Below, piece by piece: positions 724 through 13,906 of a stretch of 28,179 bases of DNA (positions are counted from its first letter, which is position 1; each line of letters begins with the position of its first letter). Where the stretch lies: positions 1 through 28,179 of the forward strand of contig JBDREN010000041.1 of NCBI GenBank assembly GCA_043819795.1, read 5' to 3'. Source of the stretch: Elusimicrobiota bacterium (lineage in GTDB: Bacteria > Elusimicrobiota > Elusimicrobia > UBA1565). Position numbers and translations under genes: made by a program. The notes under the pieces were generated by a model. The model made no database searches. It was not told the origin of the DNA and saw only the letters and a program-made list of their open reading frames with translations.

Positions 724-3700
724 ATGAACCGGGCGCGGCTGCTGCTCACCTTCTTTCTCGCCGGCGGGTTCTCCCAGGTCGTGCAGGCCCTCATGGGCCG
801 GGAGATGCTCGTCGTCTTCTACGGCAACGAGATAAGCCTCGGTCTCTTCTACGGCTTCTGGCTGCTCTGGATCGCGGTCGGCAGCTGGGCAGCCGGGAGG
901 CTCGCCGCCGGGCTCCGGCGTCCGCTGACCGCCTTCTCGCTGCTCATGGCGCTCTTGCCCGCGGCTTCGGCCGGCGCCATCCTGCTCCTGCGCGTCTGCC
1001 GCCGCTTCATCGACGTCTCGCCGACGCAGTTCGTCCCGCTCGACCAGCTCGCGTTGTGGAGCCTCGCGGTGACGTTCCCGGTGGGGGTCCTGGTCGGCGC
1101 GGCTTTCCCTCTGGCGTGCCGCGCGCTGAATAAAGAGGAGGATATACCCAGCGTCTACATCTTCGACGCGCTGGGCGGGCTGGCCGGCGGGGCGCTATTC
1201 ACGTTCTTCCTGGTGGACCGGATCTCGGCCTGGCAGACGCTCGGCGCGCTGAGCGCGGCGCTGGGCCTGGCGCTCCTCGCGCTCCCCCGAGGAGAGGGCA
1301 AGGCCGGGCTCTGGATCGGGCGGGCGTTGGGCGCGGCCTGGGCCGTCTGCGGGTTGGCGGTCCTGCTGACGCCGGCGGGCGACCGCCTCACCGCGCGGGC
1401 CGACGCGCTCCGTTGGGGTTCGATCCTGCCGAAGCTCGAGCTCGTCGAGACCTTCGACACGCCGTACCAGAACCTCGCCATCGCCCGGCTCGGTGATCAG
1501 ACCATCGTGGTGGCCGACGGCAAGGTGACGGCCAGCTTTTCTGAGCGGATCGTGCCCGCGGTCCAGGCGTCGCTCCTCTTCGGCCAGCACCCCAAGGCCA
1601 AGCGCGTCCTTCTCGTCGAAGGGGCGGCGGGCGGGCTGATACCCGAGCTGCTCAAGTACCCGGTCGAGAGGATCGACTGCGTCGAGCCGGACGAGCGGGC
1701 TTTCGAGCGGATCCGGGAGCACGTGCCGGCGGACTGGAAGAAGGCGTTCGCCGACAAGCGGGTGCGCTTCCACTTCGCGGACCCGCGGCTGTTCTTCAAT
1801 CGGCTGGCCGACGACGAGGGATACGACCTCATCGTCGTTTTGGTGCCGGATCCGGCCACCGCGAGTCTGAACCGCTTCTTCACCAAGGAGTTCTACGAGG
1901 CCGCGGGCCGGGCGCTCGCGGGCGGCGGGGTATTCATGACGGAGGTGACCTCCGCGTCCAACTACCTGGGGCGCGAGGTGAAGAGCTACAACGCATCGGT
2001 CTACCGGACCCTGCGCGAGGTCTTCGAGGACGTCCGGGTCACGCCGGGGGACTCCAACTATTTCTTCGCCTCGGACAAGAAGGGAAAGCTCACTCTCGAC
2101 CCGGCGGCGCTGGCGCTCCGCTACATGAGCGTCCGGGTCCGCGAGCGCGCCATCCCCCGGGAGGCGTTCTTCTCCATCCTGCCCAAGGACCGCGTGGCCT
2201 TCGTGGAGGGCAGCCTCAAGGAGCAGGGCGGGGAGCTCAATACGGACCTCAGACCGGTCACCTACTACCTGAACATGCTGCTGTGGGGGCGGTTCTCGGG
2301 CTCGGAGTGGGTCGGCGCTCTGGAGACGATCCGGCGCGTCGGCGGACGGTTTTTCCTGCTGCCCCTCGTCATCTTCATCCTTTTTCGGCTGGGCTACGGG
2401 CTCACGGAGGAGGACCGGTCCCGGGAGCGGCGCTTCTCGGCCGGGACCGCGATCGTGGCGCTGGGCTTCACGGCCATGGCGCTGGAGCTCGTGCTGCTGT
2501 TCACGTTCCAGAGCTTCTTCGGCCATATCTACAAGAAGGTGGGGCTGCTCAACGGCTTGTTCATGGCCGGCTTGGCTTCGGGCGCCTTCGCCGCCGTGCG
2601 GGCCGGGGCGGGGCGTTCGGCCGTCCCGGGCCGCTGGCTTTTGGCGGCGGCGGCCGCCGCCGCGGGTTACGCATGGATGCTGCCGCGCCTTCTGGAGCTT
2701 GTCCGGCCGTTGGGCGCGGACGCGGCGGAAGCGGCCTACTGGGGACTGGTGTTCGCGTCGGGGGCGTTCACCGGCGCGGGCTTTCCGCCCGCCGTCCGGC
2801 TCCACCACCGGGGGGCCGGCGACGTGGGGCGGACGTCGGGGGCGATCGACGCGGCGGACCACATGGGCGGCATGCTCGGCGGGCTCGTGACCGGCACCTG
2901 CCTGGTGCCGCTTCTGGGAGTGGAGAGTTCCTGCCGGCTGGCCGCGACCGGGCTCGCCTTGAGCTGCCTGCCTCTGATCCTGCTCGAGCTCAAGGGGGTG
3001 GGCGCGGTCCGCAGCCTGGGAGAGCGGCTTTCCGGACTTCCCGTGCTCCGTTTCCGGGAGCGCGCCTTTGTCTCCTTTCCTCCCCGGCGGACGAGCTGGG
3101 TCCTGGCTGGGCTCGCCGTCACGGTCTGGGCCATGAGCGCCGCGGTCAAGCAGGGGGGGAGGCCCGCTTTGGTGGAGTTCTCCGATGCGGAGCTCACGGG
3201 CGTCACGAGACTGCGGCGCTTCGAGCGCCACGAGGAGCCGTTTCCGTATTACCGCGGCGTGAGCGAGCGGGGGGGCGAGTCGGGGGCCGCGTTCAGCACC
3301 TTCCCGCACTCCTCGGAGGTCAAGGGCTACTCGGGCCCGATCAACCTGCTGCTGGGACTTTCCGGGAAGGGGGAGGTCCTGGGGCTCAAGCTGGTGGAAA
3401 GCCGCGAGACGCCCTCCTACATAGAGGGCATCGACGCCTGGCTCTCGTCCTTCAAGGGACTGGACACCACGGGAACGCTCCGCCTGGGCCGGGAGATCGA
3501 CGCGTTGTCCGGCGCCACGGTGACCTCCCGCGCGGTGGTCGAGATCGTCAACCGCTCCTCCGAGGCGGTGGGCGAGCGCGTCCTGGGGCTGACGGTGCGG
3601 CGCGACCGGGTCCGGCGGCCCTGGACCGAGCCGCTGAAGACGCTCAAGTTCTGGGTCATCGCCGGGTTCCTGGCGCTGTTCTTCCCCGTGTACCTGAAGG

Positions 3701-4383
3701 GCGGCGAGCGGGCGCGCTTCGCCTATCTCGCGGGCGCGGTGTGCGTGATGGGCATCGCGTACAACACGCTCTTCTCGCTGGTGGACATCGCCAACGTCTC
3801 GGAAGGGCGCCTGCCCGGCCCGGACAACGCCGTCTGGTTCGTCCTGGCCGGCTTCATCCTGATCACCTCGCTTCTATGGGGACAGGCGTACTGCGGGTTC
3901 GTATGCCCGTTCGGCGCGCTCCAGGAGCTCCTGTGGAGCCTGGGGCAGCGCGCCGGGCTCAAGTCCTGCGCGATGCGCTGGCTGGACCAGGGCGCGCGCT
4001 ACGTCAAGTTCCTTCTGCTGACGGCGGCCTTATGCCTGTTCTGGATCACGGCCGAGACCGCTTGGATCACCTTCAGCCCGCTGCAGCATTTTTTCGCGTT
4101 GAAATTTTCCAAGGTCATGGCTATCCTAGTGGGGGTGGCGCTGTCCGCGTCGGTGCTGTATTTCCGTTTCTGGTGCCGCTACTTCTGCCCCGCCGGCGCG
4201 TTCCTGGCGCTGTCCAACAAGCTGGCGCTGGCGCGGCGCTGGGCCCCGAAGCGGGAGTTCAGCCTCTGCGATCAGGGCGTGCACGCCGAGTACGACGTGG
4301 ACTGCCTCCAGTGCCAGCGCTGCGTGCATCATCCGGCTTATGCGAGCAAGAACGCCGAGAGTCCTGAGAAAAAGGGATCTTAA
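724..4383 (+). CDS. Multi-pass membrane fusion: spermidine-synthase-like (fused MFS/SpeE-type) region + FMN-binding flavinylation domain + NosR/NapH-like 4Fe-4S membrane domain
   Basis: Many TM helices. SpeE-like motifs (TPYQNL, P..KRVLLVEGAAGG, IDCVEPD, YDLIVVLVPDP, NTDLRP); FMN_bind motifs (GYSGPI, RETPSY, IDALSGATVTS); Cys motifs CGFVCPFG, CRYFCPAG, CLQCQRC. Confidence 0.85.
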   Translation: MNRARLLLTFFLAGGFSQVVQALMGREMLVVFYGNEISLGLFYGFWLLWIAVGSWAAGRLAAGLRRPLTAFSLLMALLPAASAGAILLLRVCRRFIDVSPTQFVPLDQLALWSLAVTFPVGVLVGAAFPLACRALNKEEDIPSVYIFDALGGLAGGALFTFFLVDRISAWQTLGALSAALGLALLALPRGEGKAGLWIGRALGAAWAVCGLAVLLTPAGDRLTARADALRWGSILPKLELVETFDTPYQNLAIARLGDQTIVVADGKVTASFSERIVPAVQASLLFGQHPKAKRVLLVEGAAGGLIPELLKYPVERIDCVEPDERAFERIREHVPADWKKAFADKRVRFHFADPRLFFNRLADDEGYDLIVVLVPDPATASLNRFFTKEFYEAAGRALAGGGVFMTEVTSASNYLGREVKSYNASVYRTLREVFEDVRVTPGDSNYFFASDKKGKLTLDPAALALRYMSVRVRERAIPREAFFSILPKDRVAFVEGSLKEQGGELNTDLRPVTYYLNMLLWGRFSGSEWVGALETIRRVGGRFFLLPLVIFILFRLGYGLTEEDRSRERRFSAGTAIVALGFTAMALELVLLFTFQSFFGHIYKKVGLLNGLFMAGLASGAFAAVRAGAGRSAVPGRWLLAAAAAAAGYAWMLPRLLELVRPLGADAAEAAYWGLVFASGAFTGAGFPPAVRLHHRGAGDVGRTSGAIDAADHMGGMLGGLVTGTCLVPLLGVESSCRLAATGLALSCLPLILLELKGVGAVRSLGERLSGLPVLRFRERAFVSFPPRRTSWVLAGLAVTVWAMSAAVKQGGRPALVEFSDAELTGVTRLRRFERHEEPFPYYRGVSERGGESGAAFSTFPHSSEVKGYSGPINLLLGLSGKGEVLGLKLVESRETPSYIEGIDAWLSSFKGLDTTGTLRLGREIDALSGATVTSRAVVEIVNRSSEAVGERVLGLTVRRDRVRRPWTEPLKTLKFWVIAGFLALFFPVYLKGGERARFAYLAGAVCVMGIAYNTLFSLVDIANVSEGRLPGPDNAVWFVLAGFILITSLLWGQAYCGFVCPFGALQELLWSLGQRAGLKSCAMRWLDQGARYVKFLLLTAALCLFWITAETAWITFSPLQHFFALKFSKVMAILVGVALSASVLYFRFWCRYFCPAGAFLALSNKLALARRWAPKREFSLCDQGVHAEYDVDCLQCQRCVHHPAYASKNAESPEKKGS

Positions 4384-4648
4384 GTTCGTCGCGCTGTGCG
4401 CGGCCACGCTGGCCCTGGTGGGGGTCTACGTCCGGGACTCCCTTCTGGTCAGCGAGACGGCTCAGAGCGGATTCCGCAAGATCGACTTTCCCGCCGTGCG
4501 GCGCATGATCCGCAAGGGGGAGCTCGTGGACCGCGAGGCCATGTACTACCGGGCCGCGGAGGCGCGGCCGGACGAGGCCTTCGGCGGGACGGAAGCCTTC
4601 AACGCCCAGGCCTCGCGGGCAGGTGCCGGCGCGGAGGCGGCGCCGTGA
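4340..4648 (+). CDS. Small single-TM protein with a GELVDREAMYY motif (exact start uncertain)
   Basis: Overlaps the upstream stop. Its TGA overlaps the GTG start of the radical SAM gene (GTGA at 4645-4648). Basic N-terminus followed by a hydrophobic helix; normal codon usage. Confidence 0.7.
   Translation: MRARTPRVLRKRDLKFVALCAATLALVGVYVRDSLLVSETAQSGFRKIDFPAVRRMIRKGELVDREAMYYRAAEARPDEAFGGTEAFNAQASRAGAGAEAAP
4555..4639 (+). repeat. Dispersed repeat copy 1 (core 4584-4620), flanked by a 10-bp direct repeat
   Basis: 4584-4620 matches 13277-13313 at 33/37 nt, the first 23 identical. CGCGGAGGCG occurs at 4555-4564 and 4630-4639, 75 nt apart. Confidence 0.7.
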
Positions 4649-5628
4649 AAAGGGACGTGGTATGCGAGCTCTGCCCCAAGGAGTGCCGGATCCCGGAGGG
4701 CGCGGCCGGCGATTGCCGGGTGCGCGTCAACATGGGCGGCAAGCTCAGGGCGACGACTTACGCGCGGCCGAGCTCCGTCCACATCGACCCCATCGAGAAG
4801 AAGCCTCTTAACCACTTTCTGCCCGCTTCGCGCATATTCTCGATCGCCACGGCGGGCTGCAACCTGCACTGCCGGAACTGCCAGAACTGGCAGCTCTCCC
4901 AGCGCGACGGCGCGCAGATGGAGATGCGCTACCGGGCGGACCCCAAGGACGTGGTGGACGCGGCGATCCGGACCAAGTGCCCATCGATCGCCTACACGTA
5001 CTCGGATCCGGTCGTCTATTACGAGTACGCCTACGACGCGTCCCGGCTCGCCCGGGAGAAAGGCCTGAAGAACGTGCTCGTGACCGCGGGCTATATCAAC
5101 CGGAAGCCGCTCAAGAGGCTGCTGCGGTACATCGACGCGACCAATACGGACCTGAAGTACTTCGAGGACGCCCCTTACCGGAAGTACAGCGATGGGAGCC
5201 TCCAGCCCGTCCTCGATTGCCTGGTCACGCAGAAGGAGATGGGCGTGTGGCTCGAGGTCACGAACCTCGTCATCCCGACCCTGAACGACGATATGGCCAT
5301 GATCCGGCGCATGGCCAAGTGGATGGTCTCGAACCTGGACGAGGACACCCCTCTTCACTTCAGCCGGTTCTTCCCCCAGTACCAGATGCGGAACCTGCCC
5401 TCCACGCCGGTGGCGACCCTGCTTCGGGCGCGCAGCGAGGCGCTCGACGCGGGGCTCAAGTACGTGTACATCGGCAATATGCACGGCCACCCGGCGGAGT
5501 CGACGATCTGCCCCACCGACGGCAAGGTCGTCGTGCGGCGCATCGGCTATCATGTGCCGGAGATCCACATCAAGGACGGCAGGTGCGAATACTGCAAGAC
5601 GCCCATCGCAGGGAGGTGGAGCTTATGA
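4645..5628 (+). CDS. amrS: AmmeMemoRadiSam system radical SAM enzyme (327 aa)
   Basis: GTG start with SD GGAGG at 4633-4637. Motifs CELCPKEC, IDPIEKKPL.HF, GCNLHCRNCQNW (CxxxCxxC), HFSRFFP.Y, YVYIGN, C-terminal Cys pairs. Confidence 0.92.
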   Translation: MKRDVVCELCPKECRIPEGAAGDCRVRVNMGGKLRATTYARPSSVHIDPIEKKPLNHFLPASRIFSIATAGCNLHCRNCQNWQLSQRDGAQMEMRYRADPKDVVDAAIRTKCPSIAYTYSDPVVYYEYAYDASRLAREKGLKNVLVTAGYINRKPLKRLLRYIDATNTDLKYFEDAPYRKYSDGSLQPVLDCLVTQKEMGVWLEVTNLVIPTLNDDMAMIRRMAKWMVSNLDEDTPLHFSRFFPQYQMRNLPSTPVATLLRARSEALDAGLKYVYIGNMHGHPAESTICPTDGKVVVRRIGYHVPEIHIKDGRCEYCKTPIAGRWSL

Positions 5629-5792
5629 CGACGGAAGGAGGAGGGCGTGTGTCGCGCAAGGGCTTCCTCGCGCGGCTCGCCGCGGGGGCGGCGGCCCTGC
5701 TGGGCGGCGTTCATTTCGGGCGAGCGGGACGGGAACACGATAGGGACCTGCGCGAGGCCGACTTCTACTCCCCGCACGACCTGGCGGGCTGA
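5625..5792 (+). CDS. 55-aa peptide with a twin-arginine-like N-terminus (SRKGFL) and C-terminal LREADFYSPHDLAG
   Basis: SD GGAGGTG, ATGA overlap with the amrS stop, and TGATG overlap with the next gene. It fills the gap between the two genes exactly. Confidence 0.75.
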   Translation: MTTEGGGRVSRKGFLARLAAGAAALLGGVHFGRAGREHDRDLREADFYSPHDLAG

Positions 5793-7396
5793 TGGCGGCC
5801 AAGCGCGCTCCCAAGGCGTCCGCCGCTCCGGCGCTTTTGCCTGTCGCCGTCCTGTTGTTGATCCCGCTCCTCGTCCATTGCGAGCGGGACAAGCGGCCCG
5901 CCGCGGGCTCGTCCGGCGAGACGTCTCCGGCCGCGTCCGCCCGCGTGCGGCGCAGCCCCTTGGCCGGATCCTGGTACCTCGGCGACGCGGGCAAGCTGCG
6001 CGCCCGTCTCGGCCTCTATCTCGAGCGGGCCGGGAAACCGCGGCTCAAGGGAAGGCCCCTCGCTCTGGTGTCTCCCCACGCGGGCTTCCGGTACTCGGGA
6101 CAGGCCGCGGCCTACGGATTCAAGGCGCTCGAGGGCCGGGACATCCGCCGGGTGGTCGTCTTGGGAGTGAGCCACCGATACCCCTTCCCGGGAGCCTCCG
6201 TCCCCGCCTTCGACCACTACGAGACGCCGCTCGGCCGCGTGCCGGTGGATCGGGAAGCCGCGGACCGGCTGCTCAAGCATCGGCTCTTCGCCTCGCGGTC
6301 CAAGGTCCATGAGGAGGAGCACTCCATCGAGATTCAGCTACCCTTCCTCCAAGTCGTGCTCCCCGAAGGCTTCTCGATCGTGCCGGTGGTCTTCAGCTCG
6401 CTCGATCGCGCCGATTACGCCCCCGCGGCCCGCGAGATACGCAGGTTCGTGGACGACCGGACGGTCGTGGTGGCGAGCTCGGACTTCGTTCATTACGGGA
6501 AACGGTTCGGGTACGCCCCCTTCGAGCGCGAGATACCCCGGAATATCGAGGCTCTGGACCGGGAGGCCATCCAAGCCATCGTGAAAAAGGATTTCGCCGC
6601 CTTCTACGAGCACCACGAACGCACCGGCGCCACGATCTGCGGCCGCGTTCCCATCGGCGTGCTCTTGAACCTTCTTCCGGAGGGTTCGCGGGGCACGCTC
6701 CTGCGCTACTACCGCTCGGGCGAGCTGACCGGGGAGTGGGACGGTTCGGTGAGCTACGCTTCCATCCTGTTCACGGACGGGGCGGGGACGGGCGGGGAGC
6801 CGGACGTCTCGTTCGCGGGCGCCGAGCGCGAGAGCCGCCTGGCGGCGATGCTCAAGCCCGATGAGCAGGGTGAGATCCTGGCGCTGGCGCGCGCCACCGT
6901 GGAGGCGTACGTACGCGAGAAGAAGGCCCCGTCCACCGAGGCCCTGATGGAGAGGGTGAAGGCGGGCCTCAAGAAGGTCATGGGAGTGTTCGTGACCCTG
7001 CGCAAGCACGGCCGTCTGAGGGGCTGCATCGGCAGCATCGTGGGGGTCGAGCCGCTCTACGAGGGAGTGGTCCGCAACGCGGTCAACGCCTGCGCGTTCG
7101 ATCGCCGCTTCAAGCCCGTGACGGCCGATGAGCTGGGCGACATCGAGGTCGAGGTGTCCGTGCTGAGCCCGCTGCGGCGCGTGGAGGGCTATCATAGGAT
7201 CCTGCCCGGCTGGCACGGCGTCGTGCTCAGGAAGGGGGGCAGGTCGGCGGTCTTCCTGCCCCAGGTCGCCATGGAGAACCATTGGGACGTCGAGGAGACC
7301 CTGACGCATCTGGCGCGCAAGGCGGGTCTGGCGGCCGATGCCTGGAAGTCGGAAGCCGAGTTCCACGTGTTCGAGGCGCAGATCATCCCCGAGTAA
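5792..7396 (+). CDS. amrB: Fused AmmeMemoRadiSam protein B (MEMO1-like) and protein A (AMMECR1) with an N-terminal signal or lipoprotein-like leader
   Basis: MEMO motifs AGSWY, PHAG..YSG, GVSH, EHSIEIQLPFL, SSDFVHYG, TICG, VSYAS. AMMECR1 motifs GVFVTL, LRGCIG, D.RF, EVSVLS, FLPQVA. Leader VAVLLLIPLLVHC. Confidence 0.92.
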   Translation: MAAKRAPKASAAPALLPVAVLLLIPLLVHCERDKRPAAGSSGETSPAASARVRRSPLAGSWYLGDAGKLRARLGLYLERAGKPRLKGRPLALVSPHAGFRYSGQAAAYGFKALEGRDIRRVVVLGVSHRYPFPGASVPAFDHYETPLGRVPVDREAADRLLKHRLFASRSKVHEEEHSIEIQLPFLQVVLPEGFSIVPVVFSSLDRADYAPAAREIRRFVDDRTVVVASSDFVHYGKRFGYAPFEREIPRNIEALDREAIQAIVKKDFAAFYEHHERTGATICGRVPIGVLLNLLPEGSRGTLLRYYRSGELTGEWDGSVSYASILFTDGAGTGGEPDVSFAGAERESRLAAMLKPDEQGEILALARATVEAYVREKKAPSTEALMERVKAGLKKVMGVFVTLRKHGRLRGCIGSIVGVEPLYEGVVRNAVNACAFDRRFKPVTADELGDIEVEVSVLSPLRRVEGYHRILPGWHGVVLRKGGRSAVFLPQVAMENHWDVEETLTHLARKAGLAADAWKSEAEFHVFEAQIIPE

Positions 7397-7414
7397 CGTC
7401 CGGGGAAAAAGGGA

Positions 7415-7430
7415 TATACTTACTTCGGAG
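7415..7430 (+). promoter_or_regulatory. -10 box and SD for addB
   Basis: TATACT at 7415-7420, GGAG at 7427-7430, ATG at 7434. Confidence 0.5.
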
Positions 7431-7433
7431 CCT

Positions 7434-10400
7434 ATGCTTACCGTCCAGTACGGTCCGTTCCAGCCGGCCCTGGAGCGTGCCTTCCTCGCCGAGCTTGACG
7501 CGGTCAAGAAGGCCGACCCGTTGGCGCCCGCGGCGGTCGTGGCTCCCTCGCGCCGGATGGCGGACCGCCTGCAGCGCCTGGTCGCCTGCGAGGCGGGGCG
7601 AGCCTGCCTTCAGGTCGAGTTCCATACCTTCTACAGCCTGGCTCTCGAGATCGTGCGGGAGAGCGGGACGCTGGACCGGAGCGTGGTGGGCGACCCCATG
7701 TTCTTCGACAGGCTTCTCGACGACCTGCTCGCGTCCCATGCCGAAGGAGCGCAATCCCGTCCCCGCGGCCTGTCGGCATCCTACCGGTCCAGCCTCAAGG
7801 ACCTCATCGACGCCGGGGTGGAGCCACGGGCCGCGGACCTGCTCGATGAGGGGCTTCTCGACGACGCGTACGAGGCGGAGCGTTTCAGGCGGCTGCTGGC
7901 GGTCCTGCGGCGCTACGAGGAGCGCATGGACGAGCTGCGGGTGACGCCGGTCTCGGGGCTCACGCGGCGGGCGACCGAGGCGGCCTCCGCGTCTCCGGTG
8001 CTCCGGCGCTACCGAGCGATCCTCTACTACGGGTTCTACGATCTCACGGGACTTCAGGCCGATTTCTTCGAGGCGGTCGCGAAGGACTATCCCGTCACGC
8101 TCTTCTATCCCTACCGGAAGGGGCATCCGGGCTATTCCTTCTGTGACCGGTTCTTCGAGACCAAGCTCCATCTTGGCGGCCGCACGCCGCGGGCCCTCGA
8201 CGGCGGGGGCGAGGGCCGCGCGTTGGGCAAGGCCCTGGACGCGCTCTTCGTCCCGGGCGCGGAGGGGAGCGTCGCGGACGGAGCGCTCCGGTTCTTCACG
8301 GCCTCGGGAGCCCGCGACGAATCTTGGCGCGTGGCCAAGGAGGTGCTCCGGCTCGTCGAGGAGGAAGGCTACGCCCACGGCGAGATAGGCGTCGTGGCCC
8401 GCGCCCTCGATCCGTACCGGACGGCCGTCACCGAGGCGTTCGAGGAGTCCTGCATCCCGTTCCATATGAGCGCCGAGGAGCCGCTCCTGCGGCGGCCCGC
8501 GGCCCGGATGTGCCTGAAGCTGCTTACTCTGGCTCGGCGCGATTTCCCCGCGCTGGCCGTCCTGGACCTGACCGAATCGCCGTTCTTCAAGGGCCGGCGG
8601 GGCAGGTTTTGGAGGACGCTGGTGCGCCGGCTCCGCGTCCATCGCGGTTGGATGCAGTGGGAAGGCAAGCTCCTTCCCGCGACCCGTGCGGACTTCGAGC
8701 TCTATCCCCAGCTCGCGGCCGAGGGACGGCGGGGGACCGTGGTCCCTCAAGAGCAGTCTCGGGCGCTCTGGGACCTGCTCTGCGAGTGGCGCCGGCGCCT
8801 GACGCCCCCGGAGCGCCGGCGATGGTCCGAATGGGCGGATTACGCGTGCGATTTCCTTCGCGAGCACCTAGACGGGAAAGGGGATCCCGGTTTCGAGGAG
8901 GCCCTCGGCGGCCTCGACGGCCTGCGGGTATTCGACCTCCTGGGCGAGCCGGCGACGTTCGACGAGTTCCTCGACGCGGCAGAGGATCGCCTGACCCGGG
9001 CCGGCCGTCCGGTCGGGGGGGCGGAGGGGAGCGGGGTGCGCGTCCTCGACGCGATGGAGGCCCGCGGGGAATCGTTCCGCGCGCTCTTCCTGGTCGGCAT
9101 GCGGGAGGGCCTCTTCCCTAGGACGATACGGGAGGACCCGCTGCTGCGCGACTCGGCGCGCGCCGCCCTGCGCGAGACCGGCGGCTACTGGATCGCGGCG
9201 AAGCAGGCCGCCTACGACGAGGAGAAGCTGCTCTTCACTCTGCTGGCGGGGTCCGTCTCCGAGCGCCTCTACTGCTCCCACCCGCGCTCGGACGAGGAGG
9301 GGCGGGCGCAGATCCCCTCGATCTATCTCCTGGACCTCTGCCGGGCGGCGGGAGTCCGTCTCTCGCAGGCCGAGCTCAGCGAGCGCGTCCCGCGTCAGCC
9401 GGAGCGCAAGCTGACCCTCCCTCATCTGGCCCCCTACCTGACGCCGAAGGAGGCCTCGGTGGCGGCCGCTTTGACGCGGACCGGATCCCGCGCCCTTTAC
9501 CGGGCCCTCGGCTGGGACGCGGACGGCTACGAGGCTCTGGCGCGGCGCGTGGCCGACATGAACCGCCGCGGCGGACCGGGTCCCTACGACGGGTTAGTGG
9601 GTCCTCCGGCGGAATACCTGGGCGAGCTGCGCCGGCGGGGCCTGTCTCCCTCCGCGCTGGCGATCCTCGCGCGCTGTCCGTTCCAGTTCTACTCCTCGCG
9701 CGTGCTCGGGCTGGAAGAGCCCGAGGAGCCTTGCCCCAGCGGCGAGGTATCCCCCGCCGTGAAGGGGGACATCTATCACGGCGTGCTGTCCCGCTTCTAC
9801 AGGCGCTTGCGGCGGGAGGGCTTCTGGCGGCGCGAGCGGGCGGCGTTCCCGGAGCCGGCGCTGCGGGCCGCGGAGGACGAGGTCTTCGCCGCCTACGGGT
9901 GGCGGGAGCTCGGGGTCTACCCCCTGCTGTGGGACATCACGCGGGAGGGGATGCGCGGCCACCTGCGCGTCTTCCTTCAGCGGGACCTCCGGGAGCTCGG
10001 CGAGTCGGGGATGCGGCCGGAGCTGTTCGAGGAACCCATGGAGTCGCCCCTCGCCGTAGGGCTGCCCGAGGCTCTTAGGGGGATGCCCTTCCAGGGCCGG
10101 GCCGACCGGGTGGATGTCGGCGGCGGCTCGTTTCGCGTCGTGGACTACAAGTCCCGCTGGAGGAGACACGAGAAACTCGAGGCCCTGGTCCGCAAGGGCG
10201 AGACCTTCCAGCCGCCGGTGTACCTGGAGCTCGCCGCGCGGCATCCGCGGCTGAAGGAGGATGAGCCCGGCGGCGTCCGCTTCTGCGCTATCGAGGATGG
10301 GCCCGAGACCAACGGGCGCCCATGGGTCCACGAATACGGAGCCGACGCCCACCGTCGGAGCCGGGAAGCCCTGTTCGAGGAGCTTTCCCGCCTCGCGGGG

Positions 10401-10532
10401 ACGGTGAGCCTCGGGAAGTTCCTCATCCGTCCGGACGAGGGGGCCCACGGCCATTGCCGCTGGTGTCCGTTCGGCGCCCTCTGCCGCAAGAGCCATCCCA
10501 TGACGCTGATACGCAGCGCGGAGGCCCGATGA
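7434..10532 (+). CDS. addB: AddB/RexB-like helicase-nuclease subunit with a C-terminal PD-(D/E)XK domain (1032 aa)
   Basis: Degenerate helicase scaffold (GFYDLT.LQ, GMREG.FP), LSPS...CPFQF, GRADRVD...VVDYKS, and C-terminal CRWCPFGALC, giving a four-Cys Fe-S arrangement. Coupled to the addA-like gene. Confidence 0.85.
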   Translation: MLTVQYGPFQPALERAFLAELDAVKKADPLAPAAVVAPSRRMADRLQRLVACEAGRACLQVEFHTFYSLALEIVRESGTLDRSVVGDPMFFDRLLDDLLASHAEGAQSRPRGLSASYRSSLKDLIDAGVEPRAADLLDEGLLDDAYEAERFRRLLAVLRRYEERMDELRVTPVSGLTRRATEAASASPVLRRYRAILYYGFYDLTGLQADFFEAVAKDYPVTLFYPYRKGHPGYSFCDRFFETKLHLGGRTPRALDGGGEGRALGKALDALFVPGAEGSVADGALRFFTASGARDESWRVAKEVLRLVEEEGYAHGEIGVVARALDPYRTAVTEAFEESCIPFHMSAEEPLLRRPAARMCLKLLTLARRDFPALAVLDLTESPFFKGRRGRFWRTLVRRLRVHRGWMQWEGKLLPATRADFELYPQLAAEGRRGTVVPQEQSRALWDLLCEWRRRLTPPERRRWSEWADYACDFLREHLDGKGDPGFEEALGGLDGLRVFDLLGEPATFDEFLDAAEDRLTRAGRPVGGAEGSGVRVLDAMEARGESFRALFLVGMREGLFPRTIREDPLLRDSARAALRETGGYWIAAKQAAYDEEKLLFTLLAGSVSERLYCSHPRSDEEGRAQIPSIYLLDLCRAAGVRLSQAELSERVPRQPERKLTLPHLAPYLTPKEASVAAALTRTGSRALYRALGWDADGYEALARRVADMNRRGGPGPYDGLVGPPAEYLGELRRRGLSPSALAILARCPFQFYSSRVLGLEEPEEPCPSGEVSPAVKGDIYHGVLSRFYRRLRREGFWRRERAAFPEPALRAAEDEVFAAYGWRELGVYPLLWDITREGMRGHLRVFLQRDLRELGESGMRPELFEEPMESPLAVGLPEALRGMPFQGRADRVDVGGGSFRVVDYKSRWRRHEKLEALVRKGETFQPPVYLELAARHPRLKEDEPGGVRFCAIEDGPETNGRPWVHEYGADAHRRSREALFEELSRLAGTVSLGKFLIRPDEGAHGHCRWCPFGALCRKSHPMTLIRSAEAR

Positions 10533-13500
10533 GCGTCGCCCTCCCCGACGCCCGGGACCGCGACCTCGCTCGGCTGGACGTCACGCGCAGCGTGATCGTC
10601 GAGGCCGGGGCCGGGACCGGAAAGACGACGCTTCTCATCGACCGCATCGTGTTCCTCCTGCTCGGGAGGCGCGGCAAGGAGGGGGGCCTCGACGTGGCGC
10701 GGCTGGTCGCGCTCACGTTCACGGAGAAGGCCGCCTCGGAGATCAAGTTCCGCCTGGCCGAGCGCCTCAACCAGCTCGCCTCGCTCGTCGAGGGCCGTTC
10801 GCTGGACGGGGCCGAGGGCCCCGCCGCCGAGCGCTGCCTGCACGACCTGCGGACCCGCTTCCGCCGCGAGCCGAAGGATATCCGGGAGCTGGCGCAGCGG
10901 GCCCTGCGCGACCTGGAGCGCGCCCAGATCGGAACCATCCATTCCTTTTGCTCGCATCTTCTGCGCCTGTATCCTCTCGAGGCGGGAGTCGACCCCGAGT
11001 TCCGCGTCGACGCCGGAGAGGAGGCGCTCGACGACCTGTTCGAGAGCGAGTGGGCGCAATGGCTCGACCGGGAGCTCGGACAGGACCCGCCCCGCCCCGG
11101 GCTCTGGCGCCGCGTCCTCGGCTCCGCGGCCGGGGGAGGCGGCGTCTCTCTTGAGGACGTGCGGGACCTGGCGCGGGGACTCATCGGCCCGCGGGTGGAT
11201 ATGCAGGACGTTTCCTTGGGCGGACGGCGGGTGGCCGGGCGCCTGCGCGCCTTGGGGGAGCGGGCGGCCCGGCTCGGCGAGGGGCGGGAGAAGCCTCGGG
11301 GGCGCGTCCTGGAGCACCTCGCGTGGATGAGCTCCCGGTTCTCGGCCGCGGCCGACGCGGTCGAGGGGAAGGCGGCGGTCGCCGACACGCCGCCGTGCGC
11401 GAAGGCGCCCAAGTGGCCCGCCAACTGGGACGCCGACGGCGAGCCGCAGTACGAGAGTCTCTCGCGGATCGTCCGGCGCGTCGAGCCGCGCCACGAGGCG
11501 ATGTTCCGCGACGCGTTCGAGCTTCTGGCCCCGTTCGTGGCCGGGTTCCGGGCCGCCTACCGCCGCCGCGGCTGGATCACGTTCGACGGCCTGCTTACGT
11601 CCGCGCGGGACCTCGTCCGCGACCATCCCCGCGTCCGGTCCGAGCTCAAGCGCCGCCTGGGGGCAATCCTCATCGACGAGTTCCAGGACACCGACCCGCT
11701 GCAGGGCGAGCTTCTCATGTTCCTAGGCGAGTCCCGGGCTGGCGCGGCCAAGAGCTGGCGGGACATACGCCTCGAACCCGGGAAGCTGTTCATCGTCGGC
11801 GACCCGAAGCAGTCCATCTACCGATTCCGCGGCGCCGACATCGCGGCAGCGGAGTCCTTCACGGCCCATCTTGAAGGGCAGGGCGCGCTGCGCTGCGCGC
11901 TGCAGACGAACTTCCGGAGCCAGGCCGGCCTAGTGAACGCGATCAACCGCGTGTTCGACGCCGTGATGCGTCCGGCGGCCGGCCTTCAGCCCGCGTACCT
12001 GCCGATCAGCCCGGCGCCGGACCGGCCGGCGCGCGGCGGACCGGAGTGGATCCAAGTCGTCGCGCCCTCCGCCGAGCCGGACCGGAAGGTCTCGGCCGAC
12101 GAGAGCCGCCGCGCGGAGGCGGGCTGGATCGCCCGCTGGATCCGCGAGGATCGCGGCGGATACGAGTACCGTGAGGTCGCGGTGGTGCTGCGCAGCACCT
12201 CGGCCTTATCGGTCTATCTGGAGGCCCTCAAGCGCGCCGACATCCCCTACGTCGTGGAGGGGGAGAAGTACTTCTACGGGACGCAGGAGGTCGTGGACTT
12301 CCTCAACCTTCTGCGCGCGATCGACGACCCCTCCGACCGCATCGCGCTCGCGGGGCTCCTGCGTTCGCCGCTCGTCGCGCTCGAGGACCGGGAGATCTAC
12401 CGCCTGTGTCGAGGCGGAGGGCTCGACTACCGCAAGCGGGCGCCCGGGAGGAAGGTCGCGGCCGCTCTTGAGCCCTTCTTCGGGATGCTGCGCCGCTTCC
12501 ATGAGCGCGCGGGCCGCGAGCCGCTCGGCGACCTGATGCGCGCGGTCCTGCGCGACACCTTCCTAGTGGAGCTCTGCGCCCAGGCGTACCATCACCAGCA
12601 GACGGCCTCGAACCTGCTCAAGTTCGGCCGCTTGGCGGCCGAGTCCTGTGACCGGGGGGCGACGCTCAAGGAGTTCATTGAGACGGTCTCACTCTCGATG
12701 AAGGACTTCCGGGAGGAGGGGGAAAGCCCTCTGGCCGACGAAGATTTCGACGCCGTCCGCGTGCTCACGATCCATAAGGCCAAGGGGCTGGAGTATCCCG
12801 TAGTCATCCTGCCGAACCTCTCGGGGGGGACGCAGGGCGGCCCGTCGGAGGACGCCGCGCGCGTGGGGTGGTCGGACGGCATAGTGGGGCTGCGCATGGG
12901 CGGCGCCGGCGCCGCCAACGCCGCGATGGCTCTGCTCGATGAGGAGGAGCTGCGTCGCCAGCGGGAGGAGGAGGTCCGCGTCCTCTACGTCGCCATGACG
13001 CGTTCGAAAGAACGGCTGATGCTTCTCGGGAGCACCACTCGTCGCGGCGCGTCGTTCGCCTCCCTGCTCGACGCGGCCGGGTGCCTGGCCAGCCGGGAGC
13101 TGCCCCTCGATAGCGTGGAGGCGGGAGGCGGGGGCGGCCGGCGGAGGCCGGCCACCGGGTGGAAGGCTCCTGATCCGGCGAGGCTGGCCGCCGACTGGAA
13201 GAGGCGCCGGGAACGCTGCGCCGCGGTCCAGGAGAAGGCCCTATTCACCCATCCTACCGAGCGGCGGGACGGGGACGCGGGACGGAAGCCTTCAACGCCT
13301 GGGCCCCGCGAGCGTGGGCGCGGGGGAGACCGGCCGGCCGGGCCCGATGGGCCGCCTCGAAGCTCCGCGCCGCGCGCCGCTCTGCTCGGAAGGCTGTGCC
13401 ACGAGGCGCTCGAGCGCTGGGATTTCCGGACCGGCCGGCCGGTGCCGGCGGGCGGGGACGCTGGGCGGGATCCTTCCCCAGCCGGGTCCCGCGAGCATGG

Positions 13501-13906
13501 GCTCGCGGGGCTGCGGCGCCTGATCGCGCGCCGAGCGGAGCTTCTGAGCCGCGAGGAGCCGCAGGCCGACCGCGCGGGCCTTGAGGAGGAATGCGAGCGG
13601 ATCGTGGGCGGGTTTCTCCGCTCGAGCGCGGCCCGGGAGCTGGCCGCCTGCGAGATACTCGGCCGGGAGATCCCGTTCCTGTACGCGGAGGACGGGCAGG
13701 TGGTCCGCGGCAAGATCGACGTGCTGTACAGGAAGGGGAAGGGTCTGATCGTCGCCGACTACAAGACCGATCGGGTGCGCGGCAAGGAGAGGGCGAAGCT
13801 CGCGGCGAAATACGCGCGGCAGGGCCGCTTCTACGTCCGGGCCGTCGAGCGCGCTATGGGCCTGAAAGGGATCAAGTTCAAGGCCGTATTCCTGAGGAGC
13901 GCATGA
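10529..13906 (+). CDS. addA: AddA/UvrD-family ATP-dependent helicase-nuclease (1125 aa)
   Basis: ATGA overlap with SD GGAGG. Motifs AGAGTGKT, LTFTEKAA.E, TIHSF, IDEFQDT, VGDPKQSIYRFRGAD, TIHKAKGLE, LYVAMTR; nuclease G.ID...DYKT. Confidence 0.9.
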   Translation: MSVALPDARDRDLARLDVTRSVIVEAGAGTGKTTLLIDRIVFLLLGRRGKEGGLDVARLVALTFTEKAASEIKFRLAERLNQLASLVEGRSLDGAEGPAAERCLHDLRTRFRREPKDIRELAQRALRDLERAQIGTIHSFCSHLLRLYPLEAGVDPEFRVDAGEEALDDLFESEWAQWLDRELGQDPPRPGLWRRVLGSAAGGGGVSLEDVRDLARGLIGPRVDMQDVSLGGRRVAGRLRALGERAARLGEGREKPRGRVLEHLAWMSSRFSAAADAVEGKAAVADTPPCAKAPKWPANWDADGEPQYESLSRIVRRVEPRHEAMFRDAFELLAPFVAGFRAAYRRRGWITFDGLLTSARDLVRDHPRVRSELKRRLGAILIDEFQDTDPLQGELLMFLGESRAGAAKSWRDIRLEPGKLFIVGDPKQSIYRFRGADIAAAESFTAHLEGQGALRCALQTNFRSQAGLVNAINRVFDAVMRPAAGLQPAYLPISPAPDRPARGGPEWIQVVAPSAEPDRKVSADESRRAEAGWIARWIREDRGGYEYREVAVVLRSTSALSVYLEALKRADIPYVVEGEKYFYGTQEVVDFLNLLRAIDDPSDRIALAGLLRSPLVALEDREIYRLCRGGGLDYRKRAPGRKVAAALEPFFGMLRRFHERAGREPLGDLMRAVLRDTFLVELCAQAYHHQQTASNLLKFGRLAAESCDRGATLKEFIETVSLSMKDFREEGESPLADEDFDAVRVLTIHKAKGLEYPVVILPNLSGGTQGGPSEDAARVGWSDGIVGLRMGGAGAANAAMALLDEEELRRQREEEVRVLYVAMTRSKERLMLLGSTTRRGASFASLLDAAGCLASRELPLDSVEAGGGGGRRRPATGWKAPDPARLAADWKRRRERCAAVQEKALFTHPTERRDGDAGRKPSTPGPRERGRGGDRPAGPDGPPRSSAPRAALLGRLCHEALERWDFRTGRPVPAGGDAGRDPSPAGSREHGLAGLRRLIARRAELLSREEPQADRAGLEEECERIVGGFLRSSAARELAACEILGREIPFLYAEDGQVVRGKIDVLYRKGKGLIVADYKTDRVRGKERAKLAAKYARQGRFYVRAVERAMGLKGIKFKAVFLRSA
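13270..13319 (+). repeat. Dispersed repeat copy 2, in frame inside addA
   Basis: 33/37 nt match to 4584-4620 and 39/50 nt match to 13453-13502. Confidence 0.7.
13453..13510 (+). repeat. Dispersed repeat copy 3 (diverged), in frame inside addA
   Basis: 39/50 nt ungapped match to copy 2. Ends in a perfect hairpin, CCCGCGAGC-ATGG-GCTCGCGGG (13488-13509). Confidence 0.6.

Follow-up and report, generated by a model that had tools for sequence, protein, structure and literature searches.

The system closest to the operon described here, in which Memo, AMMECR1 and a radical S-adenosylmethionine (SAM) enzyme occur together, has human counterparts in MEMO1 and AMMECR1, and we know of no reaction assigned to it. 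For a neighbourhood of radical SAM, AMMECR1 and dioxygenase-like genes a function in RNA modification was proposed, and the accessible part of that report mentions neither export nor a split of the enzyme (PMC2034487). According to the accessible part of a second report, iron-sulfur (Fe-S) proteins acquire their fold in the cytoplasm before being exported via the twin-arginine translocation (Tat) pathway, sometimes as hitchhikers without a signal of their own (PMC10924467). Furthermore, flavin mononucleotide (FMN)-binding domains of the type considered below are described as extracytosolic and, combined with NapH-like modules, have been suggested as electron donors of extracytosolic enzymes (PMC8238504, accessible part), and cytoplasmic radical SAM enzymes were found to mature a periplasmic effector in an arrangement unlike the present one (PMC13128918, accessible part). 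Here, a stretch of 28,179 nucleotides from an Elusimicrobiota bacterium (contig JBDREN010000041.1, assembly GCA_043819795.1; in the following "the window") was analyzed, which carries an amr operon whose radical SAM enzyme AmrS lacks its N-terminal front end and is flanked by two small genes. Our literature search, whose coverage did not include Burroughs et al. 2019 on Memo-AMMECR1 systems, returned neither a report of these mini-genes nor one of a radical SAM enzyme that is exported.

From the sequence we conclude, with a probability of roughly 0.6, that the two flanking mini-genes re-encode the strand lost by AmrS, the downstream peptide serving as a pilot of AmrS through the Tat pathway and the upstream protein as an anchor which holds it near a flavin electron donor. 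The front end of amrS, i.e. export signal and first strand, has been lost, and in such a mechanism the 55-aa downstream peptide would bind AmrS in trans by supplying the lost strand, presumably via strand insertion, before taking the folded Fe-S enzyme through the Tat pathway as a hitchhiker. The 102-aa upstream protein with its predicted C-out topology may then keep AmrS on the outer face beside the flavin electron donor, whose FMN-binding/NapH-like module would deliver electrons to the enzyme.

Truncated AmrS and the two flanking mini-genes

Between 724 and 7396 five genes are arranged in tight coupling on the (+) strand in the order 1219-aa protein, 102-aa protein, amrS, 55-aa peptide and amrB-amrA fusion, with the following features:

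724..4383, + strand: 1219-aa membrane protein with a transmembrane region, a spermidine-synthase-like domain, an FMN-binding domain and a NapH-like 4Fe-4S domain (Pfam PF01564, PF04205 and PF12801, above cut-off)
4340..4648, + strand: 102-aa single-pass membrane protein, predicted N-in, C-out tether, with a conserved mini-domain of ~28 residues and no Pfam family
4532..4549, + strand: REAMYY, which copies the N-terminal strand of AmrS (20.2 bits, 0/3000 shuffles)
4633..4637, + strand: GGAGG, amrS Shine-Dalgarno sequence, located 7 nt ahead of the GTG start (read from the sequence)
4645..5628, + strand: amrS, 327-aa AmmeMemoRadiSam radical SAM enzyme (TIGR04337) without signal peptide or first strand
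5625..5792, + strand: 55-aa peptide, likely Tat pilot, with Tat-like SRKGFL, a hydrophobic stretch and C-terminal LREADFYSPHDLAG
5751..5768, + strand: READFY, in which the strand motif recurs (12.4 bits, 2/3000 shuffles)
5792..7396, + strand: amrB-amrA fusion, Memo joined to AMMECR1 (TIGR04336 and TIGR04335, both above cut-off), whose hydrophobic leader at the N-terminus was seen in the sequence

AmrS scored 378.9 bits against TIGR04337 (cut-off 220), the alignment covering profile positions 11-333 with positions 1-10 being absent. Translation starts at the GTG at 4645, which overlaps the upstream stop, and the protein begins (M)KRDVVCELCP, with six residues ahead of the first Cys and no leader. 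The CxxxCxxC motif (C72/C76/C79) and an N-terminal cluster (C7/C10/C14/C24) are invariant in 102 AmrS sequences, PF04055 was matched, and the operon partners AmrA and AmrB are present in fused form, all three families lying above cut-off. AlphaFold2 gave the short AmrS a predicted local distance difference test score (pLDDT) of 97.0, similar to the 97.2 of the full-length enzyme from locus L073; as pLDDT is no measure of stability, this comparison is not informative. The nearest solved fold of the radical SAM core was pyruvate formate-lyase activating enzyme (PDB 3cb8; Foldseek E 9.4e-15, template modelling score 0.81 over the target), and no solved AmrS structure was found by sequence search, the sole match having an E value of 0.0064. 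A plasmid collection held distant AmrS only (7 records, <60% identity).

The features on which the initial annotation had been built, namely LVDREAMYY in the upstream protein, DLREADFY in the downstream peptide and the abrupt start of AmrS behind its own Shine-Dalgarno sequence, were all found in the sequence. In the upstream protein the motif follows a hydrophobic stretch (F16-V31), and its family is defined by a transmembrane helix plus the mini-domain [WY]RxIDxxAxxxxIxxGxLxx[HR]EAx[WY][YF]. The downstream peptide has a GGAGG of its own at 5612-5616, followed by SRKGFL, a hydrophobic region which passes hydropathy filters, and the strand motif. The third-position GC content of the two small open reading frames (ORFs) amounts to 0.84 and 0.80, compared to 0.89-0.91 in the large genes. 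Neither small protein belongs to a Pfam or NCBIfam family, and in the ESM Atlas the matches of the upstream protein reached 0.77 at most, whereas the downstream peptide matched unnamed clusters (0.95).

For comparison, 125 amrS loci were collected from relatives, 80 metagenome loci, Gammaproteobacteria, two loci found via the peptide and the source genome itself, and were sorted by eye into 98 full-length and 27 short AmrS. One of the 98, L150, stems from an unpublished genome (G101), and nothing claimed here hinges on it. An aromatic pair lies ~10-11 residues ahead of the first Cys in 80 of the 98 full-length enzymes, and in most of the remaining 18 its place is taken by a variant, for example ESPY or AMFQ; the consensus of the 52 non-gammaproteobacterial sequences among the 80 reads [KR]EAx[FY][YW]. 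Applying a strict pattern, a Tat-like motif was detected in 23/70 non-gammaproteobacterial full-length AmrS, five being RK variants as in the window peptide, and in 0/28 gammaproteobacterial ones. A seven-column profile of the 52 strands, with significance derived from 3000 shuffles, gave the scores listed above for the two copies in the window, whereas full-length strands reached a median of 15.2 bits upon leave-one-out scoring and the best segment within the short AmrS only 3.7 bits. Furthermore, a profile made from the peptides alone recovered the entire Tat-to-EAMFY N-terminus of the full-length enzyme from L054 with an E value of 0.014 among 18,391 ORF segments, the match spanning model positions 9-53. 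In the AlphaFold2 model of L073 (83 sequences) the EAxxY motif is predicted to form ordered strands in the N-terminal domain, REALFYQK contributing the elements 6-7 and 11-13 beside the V-Q-C strand 19-21; the two probably pair, the model itself giving no contacts.

The overlap of the upstream stop with the amrS start (GTGA) would also fit a single gene that was broken by the assembly or is joined by programmed frameshifting, a possibility which the initial annotation had named as a refutation and whose probability we consider negligible. A public contig, of low depth (2.9) and with 31 letters on its shorter side, spans 4614-4770 without difference or gap, and an assembly error at the junction is refuted. 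Moreover, the two genes are separate in two phyla, the motif-to-Cys distance of clade-A orthologues ranging between 47 and 139 nt, an in-frame stop lies within 16 codons of the first Cys in 14/46 short forms, and amrS has its own Shine-Dalgarno sequence.

Further amrS copies and variants were noticed during the survey. The source genome (241 contigs, 90% complete) contains a second amrS (C71:48505-49552; L001, L004), whose reading frame is broken into two near profile position 105 and which is followed by short GC-rich repeats, and a third (C200) with its own Tat signal and an insert ahead of the first Cys. Apparent fusions were seen as single frames matching AmrB + AmrS (L050:4002-5966) and AmrS + AmrB + AmrA (L123:4857-7361). 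In two related genomes (L190, L192) a hexanucleotide tandem repeat lies between the upstream mini-gene and amrS, and the downstream peptides carry long N-terminal extensions.

Distribution of the mini-genes among AmrS loci

Short amrS and both small genes were found as separate, conserved genes in Elusimicrobiota and Gammaproteobacteria, the full five-gene order recurring in G003, G005 and two gammaproteobacterial metagenome-assembled genomes. The strand motif is retained in orthologous small ORFs, so that a test which could have overturned the initial annotation left it standing. Within the window's clade the upstream gene is present in 29 of 32 loci; two of the other three have it farther away or across a contig break, and L048 is without it. 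The downstream family comprises 109 representatives at E <= 0.001, of which 106 end with Gly; among these the places of LxEADFYxPHDLAG are strongly kept (L 101, E 101, A 104, D 99, H 99). An RR motif is found in 92 of the 109, and the best Pfam hints among 98 peptides were Tat signals (PF10399 in 5, PF10518 in 4). A profile search of the genome contigs with the peptide alignment yielded 221 candidates, 3 of which were confirmed.

A Tat-like ORF follows 23 of the 24 short amrS genes with downstream DNA (21 by script; by eye, L008 and L048). Two further loci picked up by the script, L070 and L129, are full-length, and their ORFs are unrelated. An ORF with the strand motif was found downstream of 13/24 short versus 0/87 full-length genes, and upstream of 11/21 versus 4/96, those four being unlike the upstream family. 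An automatic short/long rule applied to 149 loci, a set biased by 24 loci which had been found via the small genes, gave 40/42 versus 4/89, all four being short forms which the rule had assigned wrongly. Conversely, two sets of 401 and 201 genomes were searched with the peptide profile. Of the 60 loci fetched, four were already known, 34 were weaker (E ~6e-6 or worse; among these L213 from G852, a true peptide), and the best 22 were examined; 20 of these 22 best new peptide matches lie directly behind short amrS, the other two being false. The upstream profile matched 4/401 and 26/201 genomes; 23 of 24 strong matches in the latter set precede short amrS, and one is located at a contig end.

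Among the 18,391 ORF segments, stand-alone matches to either small family occurred in short-AmrS loci only. Next to the 98 full-length AmrS no stand-alone gene of either family was found, although many of these operons hold AmrB/A and a spermidine-synthase-like gene; both copies are therefore tied to the lost N-terminus. This restriction to N-truncated enzymes, for which the initial annotation had asked, favours supply in trans over a substrate role throughout the family. The latter had been its alternative, i.e. that the shared motif is a recognition sequence in peptide substrates. AmrS would then recognise EAxxY and modify the conserved tail in the manner of ribosomally synthesized and post-translationally modified peptides (RiPPs) or by a glycyl-radical-like reaction at the C-terminal Gly. 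We consider this alternative very unlikely, even though the tail with its terminal Gly is near-invariant and pyruvate formate-lyase activating enzyme, the nearest solved fold, acts on a peptide Gly. Besides the absence of such peptides near the 98 full-length enzymes (0/87 with a downstream strand-motif ORF), the motif equals the strand that the enzyme itself has lost. In addition, the LAG end is absent in the context-verified peptides of L125, L191, L195, L197-L200, L202, L203, L205, L239, L241, L242 and clade B. Pfam detected in AmrS neither SPASM nor RRE at E <= 0.1. Two hallmarks of RiPP systems were thus missing, a peptide-binding domain of this kind in the enzyme and a precursor which accompanies the enzyme family with a conserved core.

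Clade B (L051, L057, L058, L074, L084) encodes downstream peptides of 43-51 aa which consist of a Tat-like signal and KEAMFW[RK] and score 15.7-20.9 bits in 5/5 cases. In sequence terms their tails are the best strand mimics, the AmrS front end being encoded behind the gene. Clade C (L053, L055, L060, L067, L068, L091, L104) is the sister to the window's clade (SH-aLRT, Shimodaira-Hasegawa-like approximate likelihood ratio test, 92), and its downstream Tat-like mini-proteins end [YF]PG...L...WxG, L104 being divergent.

Several observations speak against the proposed supply of a strand for export. In clade C, within the metagenome loci at their given extent, the strand motif was found on either flank in 0/7 cases. 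Five clade-A peptides (L048, L221, L046, L194, L201) have HxLAG without the aromatic pair, L048 (peptide 3315-3620) and L221 among them retaining RRPHxLAG, and other clade-A peptides retain EAxxY without HxLAG; moreover, L048 is without the upstream motif gene and L062 without the downstream peptide. The window peptide carries R-K in place of the canonical R-R (the consensus of Tat signals being S/T-R-R-x-F-L), and an extracytoplasmic radical SAM enzyme would need SAM on that side of the membrane. With respect to phylogeny, related loci in the co-occurrence counts are not independent, and although a quick tree (104 of 125 rows) placed the short forms in three positions, a single origin of all truncations was not rejected by the approximately unbiased test (p-AU 0.39, 66 rows; L003, L012, L020 and L105 left out and full-length rows thinned). 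Consequently, convergence is not claimed, and the co-occurrence may reflect one evolutionary event.

Because the clade C peptides lack the motif, the constant feature of short AmrS is a detached Tat-like leader, and the supply of an EAxxY strand is common, not universal. The claim of the initial annotation that the N-terminal strand was split off and is supplied in trans by two partners thus holds in part: truncation, motif match and co-occurrence support it, and clade C departs from it.

Proposed export, tethering and hand-over

In the source genome TatC was identified above cut-off (contig C235), and in L053 two genes which we take to be tatA- and tatC-like from their motifs, as judged by eye, lie directly upstream of and overlap the short amrS (L053:2105-3135). 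AmrS has the make-up of the cargo in a Tat hitchhiker pair, having no signal of its own and carrying Fe-S motifs which suggest a bound cofactor. The 1219-aa protein contains DALSGAT at residue 926 of its FMN-binding domain, which we read as the flavinylation motif, and likely represents an electron-delivery module; one apbE is present in the genome, on another contig than the operon. Among the loci surveyed for this feature, only short AmrS had FMN_bind/Fer4 genes beside them on the amrS strand.

In most loci the upstream protein bears net positive charge before its helix (+6 in the window), which predicts the strand motif on the outside. In G008 (L037:4418-7621) the strand-motif mini-domain forms the C-terminus of the large membrane protein right behind its FMN-binding domain, the two not being separated by a transmembrane segment and the Fer4_5 part being absent; this fusion places the motif on the side of the FMN domain. 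Both findings, the latter motif being continuous with an extracytosolic domain, disagree with a membrane tether that involves no export, in which AmrS would work on the cytoplasmic side and RR/RK would be positive-inside topology signals or relics. The frequent RR among the peptide homologues and the leader of AmrB/A disagree with it as well. Radical SAM chemistry requires SAM and a reductant, usually cytoplasmic, which counts for such a tether, as do the RK of the window motif, the RSRFL of L008, a signal-peptidase site that is not evident by eye and the absence of an exported radical SAM enzyme from the literature search. On balance we regard tethering alone as quite unlikely.

As to the relation between the two copies, the upstream one scored above the downstream one in 14/31 loci (three downstream picks being in the wrong frame), and the assumption that it is always the better strand mimic was rejected on this basis. 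The hand-over between the two partners envisaged in the initial annotation, whereby both copies would use one groove in sequence, obtained no direct support, is the least supported part of the model and appears doubtful to us. Slightly more doubtful is the complete course of events, in which an extracytoplasmic radical SAM enzyme would be exported by a strand-completing Tat pilot peptide and then undergo strand exchange onto the membrane-tethered copy docking at the flavinylated donor, a relay that would have been built by cutting off the front end of the gene and encoding it anew on both sides.

Alternatively, the labour could be divided without any hand-over, one peptide completing the AmrS sheet and the other binding a second site, a second AmrS subunit, AmrB/A or the spermidine-synthase-like domain, with the motif acting as a general docking strand. 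The sequence around each copy is indeed conserved in a way of its own, with the RxID...GxL mini-domain in the upstream protein and DFYxPHDLAG in the downstream peptide, neither copy is consistently the better mimic, and the clade C Tat-like peptide is devoid of the motif. With both families missing as stand-alone genes beside full-length AmrS, and both hence linked to the lost N-terminus, we nevertheless consider this division unlikely and prefer the reading in which pilot and anchor both replace the lost strand.

Next to the operon, an addB-/addA-like helicase-nuclease pair (7338-13906; Pfam PDDEXK_1 and UvrD, below the NCBIfam cut-offs) follows directly behind, and a 140-aa ORF at 305-727 precedes it, which has no Pfam or NCBIfam match and may not be a gene.

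Comparison with described systems

If the proposed mechanism is true, at least this branch of AmrS would be extracytoplasmic in its action, a location that speaks against the RNA modification proposed as its role, and a correctly placed enzyme would require co-expression of two unannotated mini-genes. Furthermore, the downstream peptide would be a minimal natural Tat carrier, ~50 aa long and acting in trans on a folded Fe-S enzyme, which could serve studies of the Tat mechanism and the engineering of protein export.

The operon resembles the AmmeMemoRadiSam system in combining AmrS (TIGR04337), AmrA/AMMECR1 (TIGR04335) and AmrB/Memo (TIGR04336), and differs from it by an AmrS without profile positions 1-10, the two unannotated strand mini-genes and the FMN-binding/NapH-like module. 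In the radical SAM core fold AmrS is similar to pyruvate formate-lyase activating enzyme (PDB 3cb8), the alignment covering only ~257 columns.

With respect to export, the closest analogy is provided by Tat hitchhikers such as the heterodimers of NiFe hydrogenase and formate dehydrogenase or PaoABC, where, according to the accessible parts of the sources, a signal-less, cofactor-loaded subunit crosses the membrane together with a twin-arginine partner (PMC10924467, PMC4273604). In contrast to these, the partner in the window comprises little beyond a signal and ~14 residues which copy the lost strand of the cargo, and co-export would be expected by analogy. The caddie protein MelC1 of the Streptomyces tyrosinase is a further analogue. 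Finally, as in NapH-like flavinylation systems of the NosR and PceC type, an FMN-binding domain and PF12801 are united in one membrane protein (PMC8238504, accessible part), whereas the module in the window is fused behind a spermidine-synthase-like membrane protein, apbE lies elsewhere, and the likely electron acceptor would be a radical SAM enzyme instead of a respiratory reductase.

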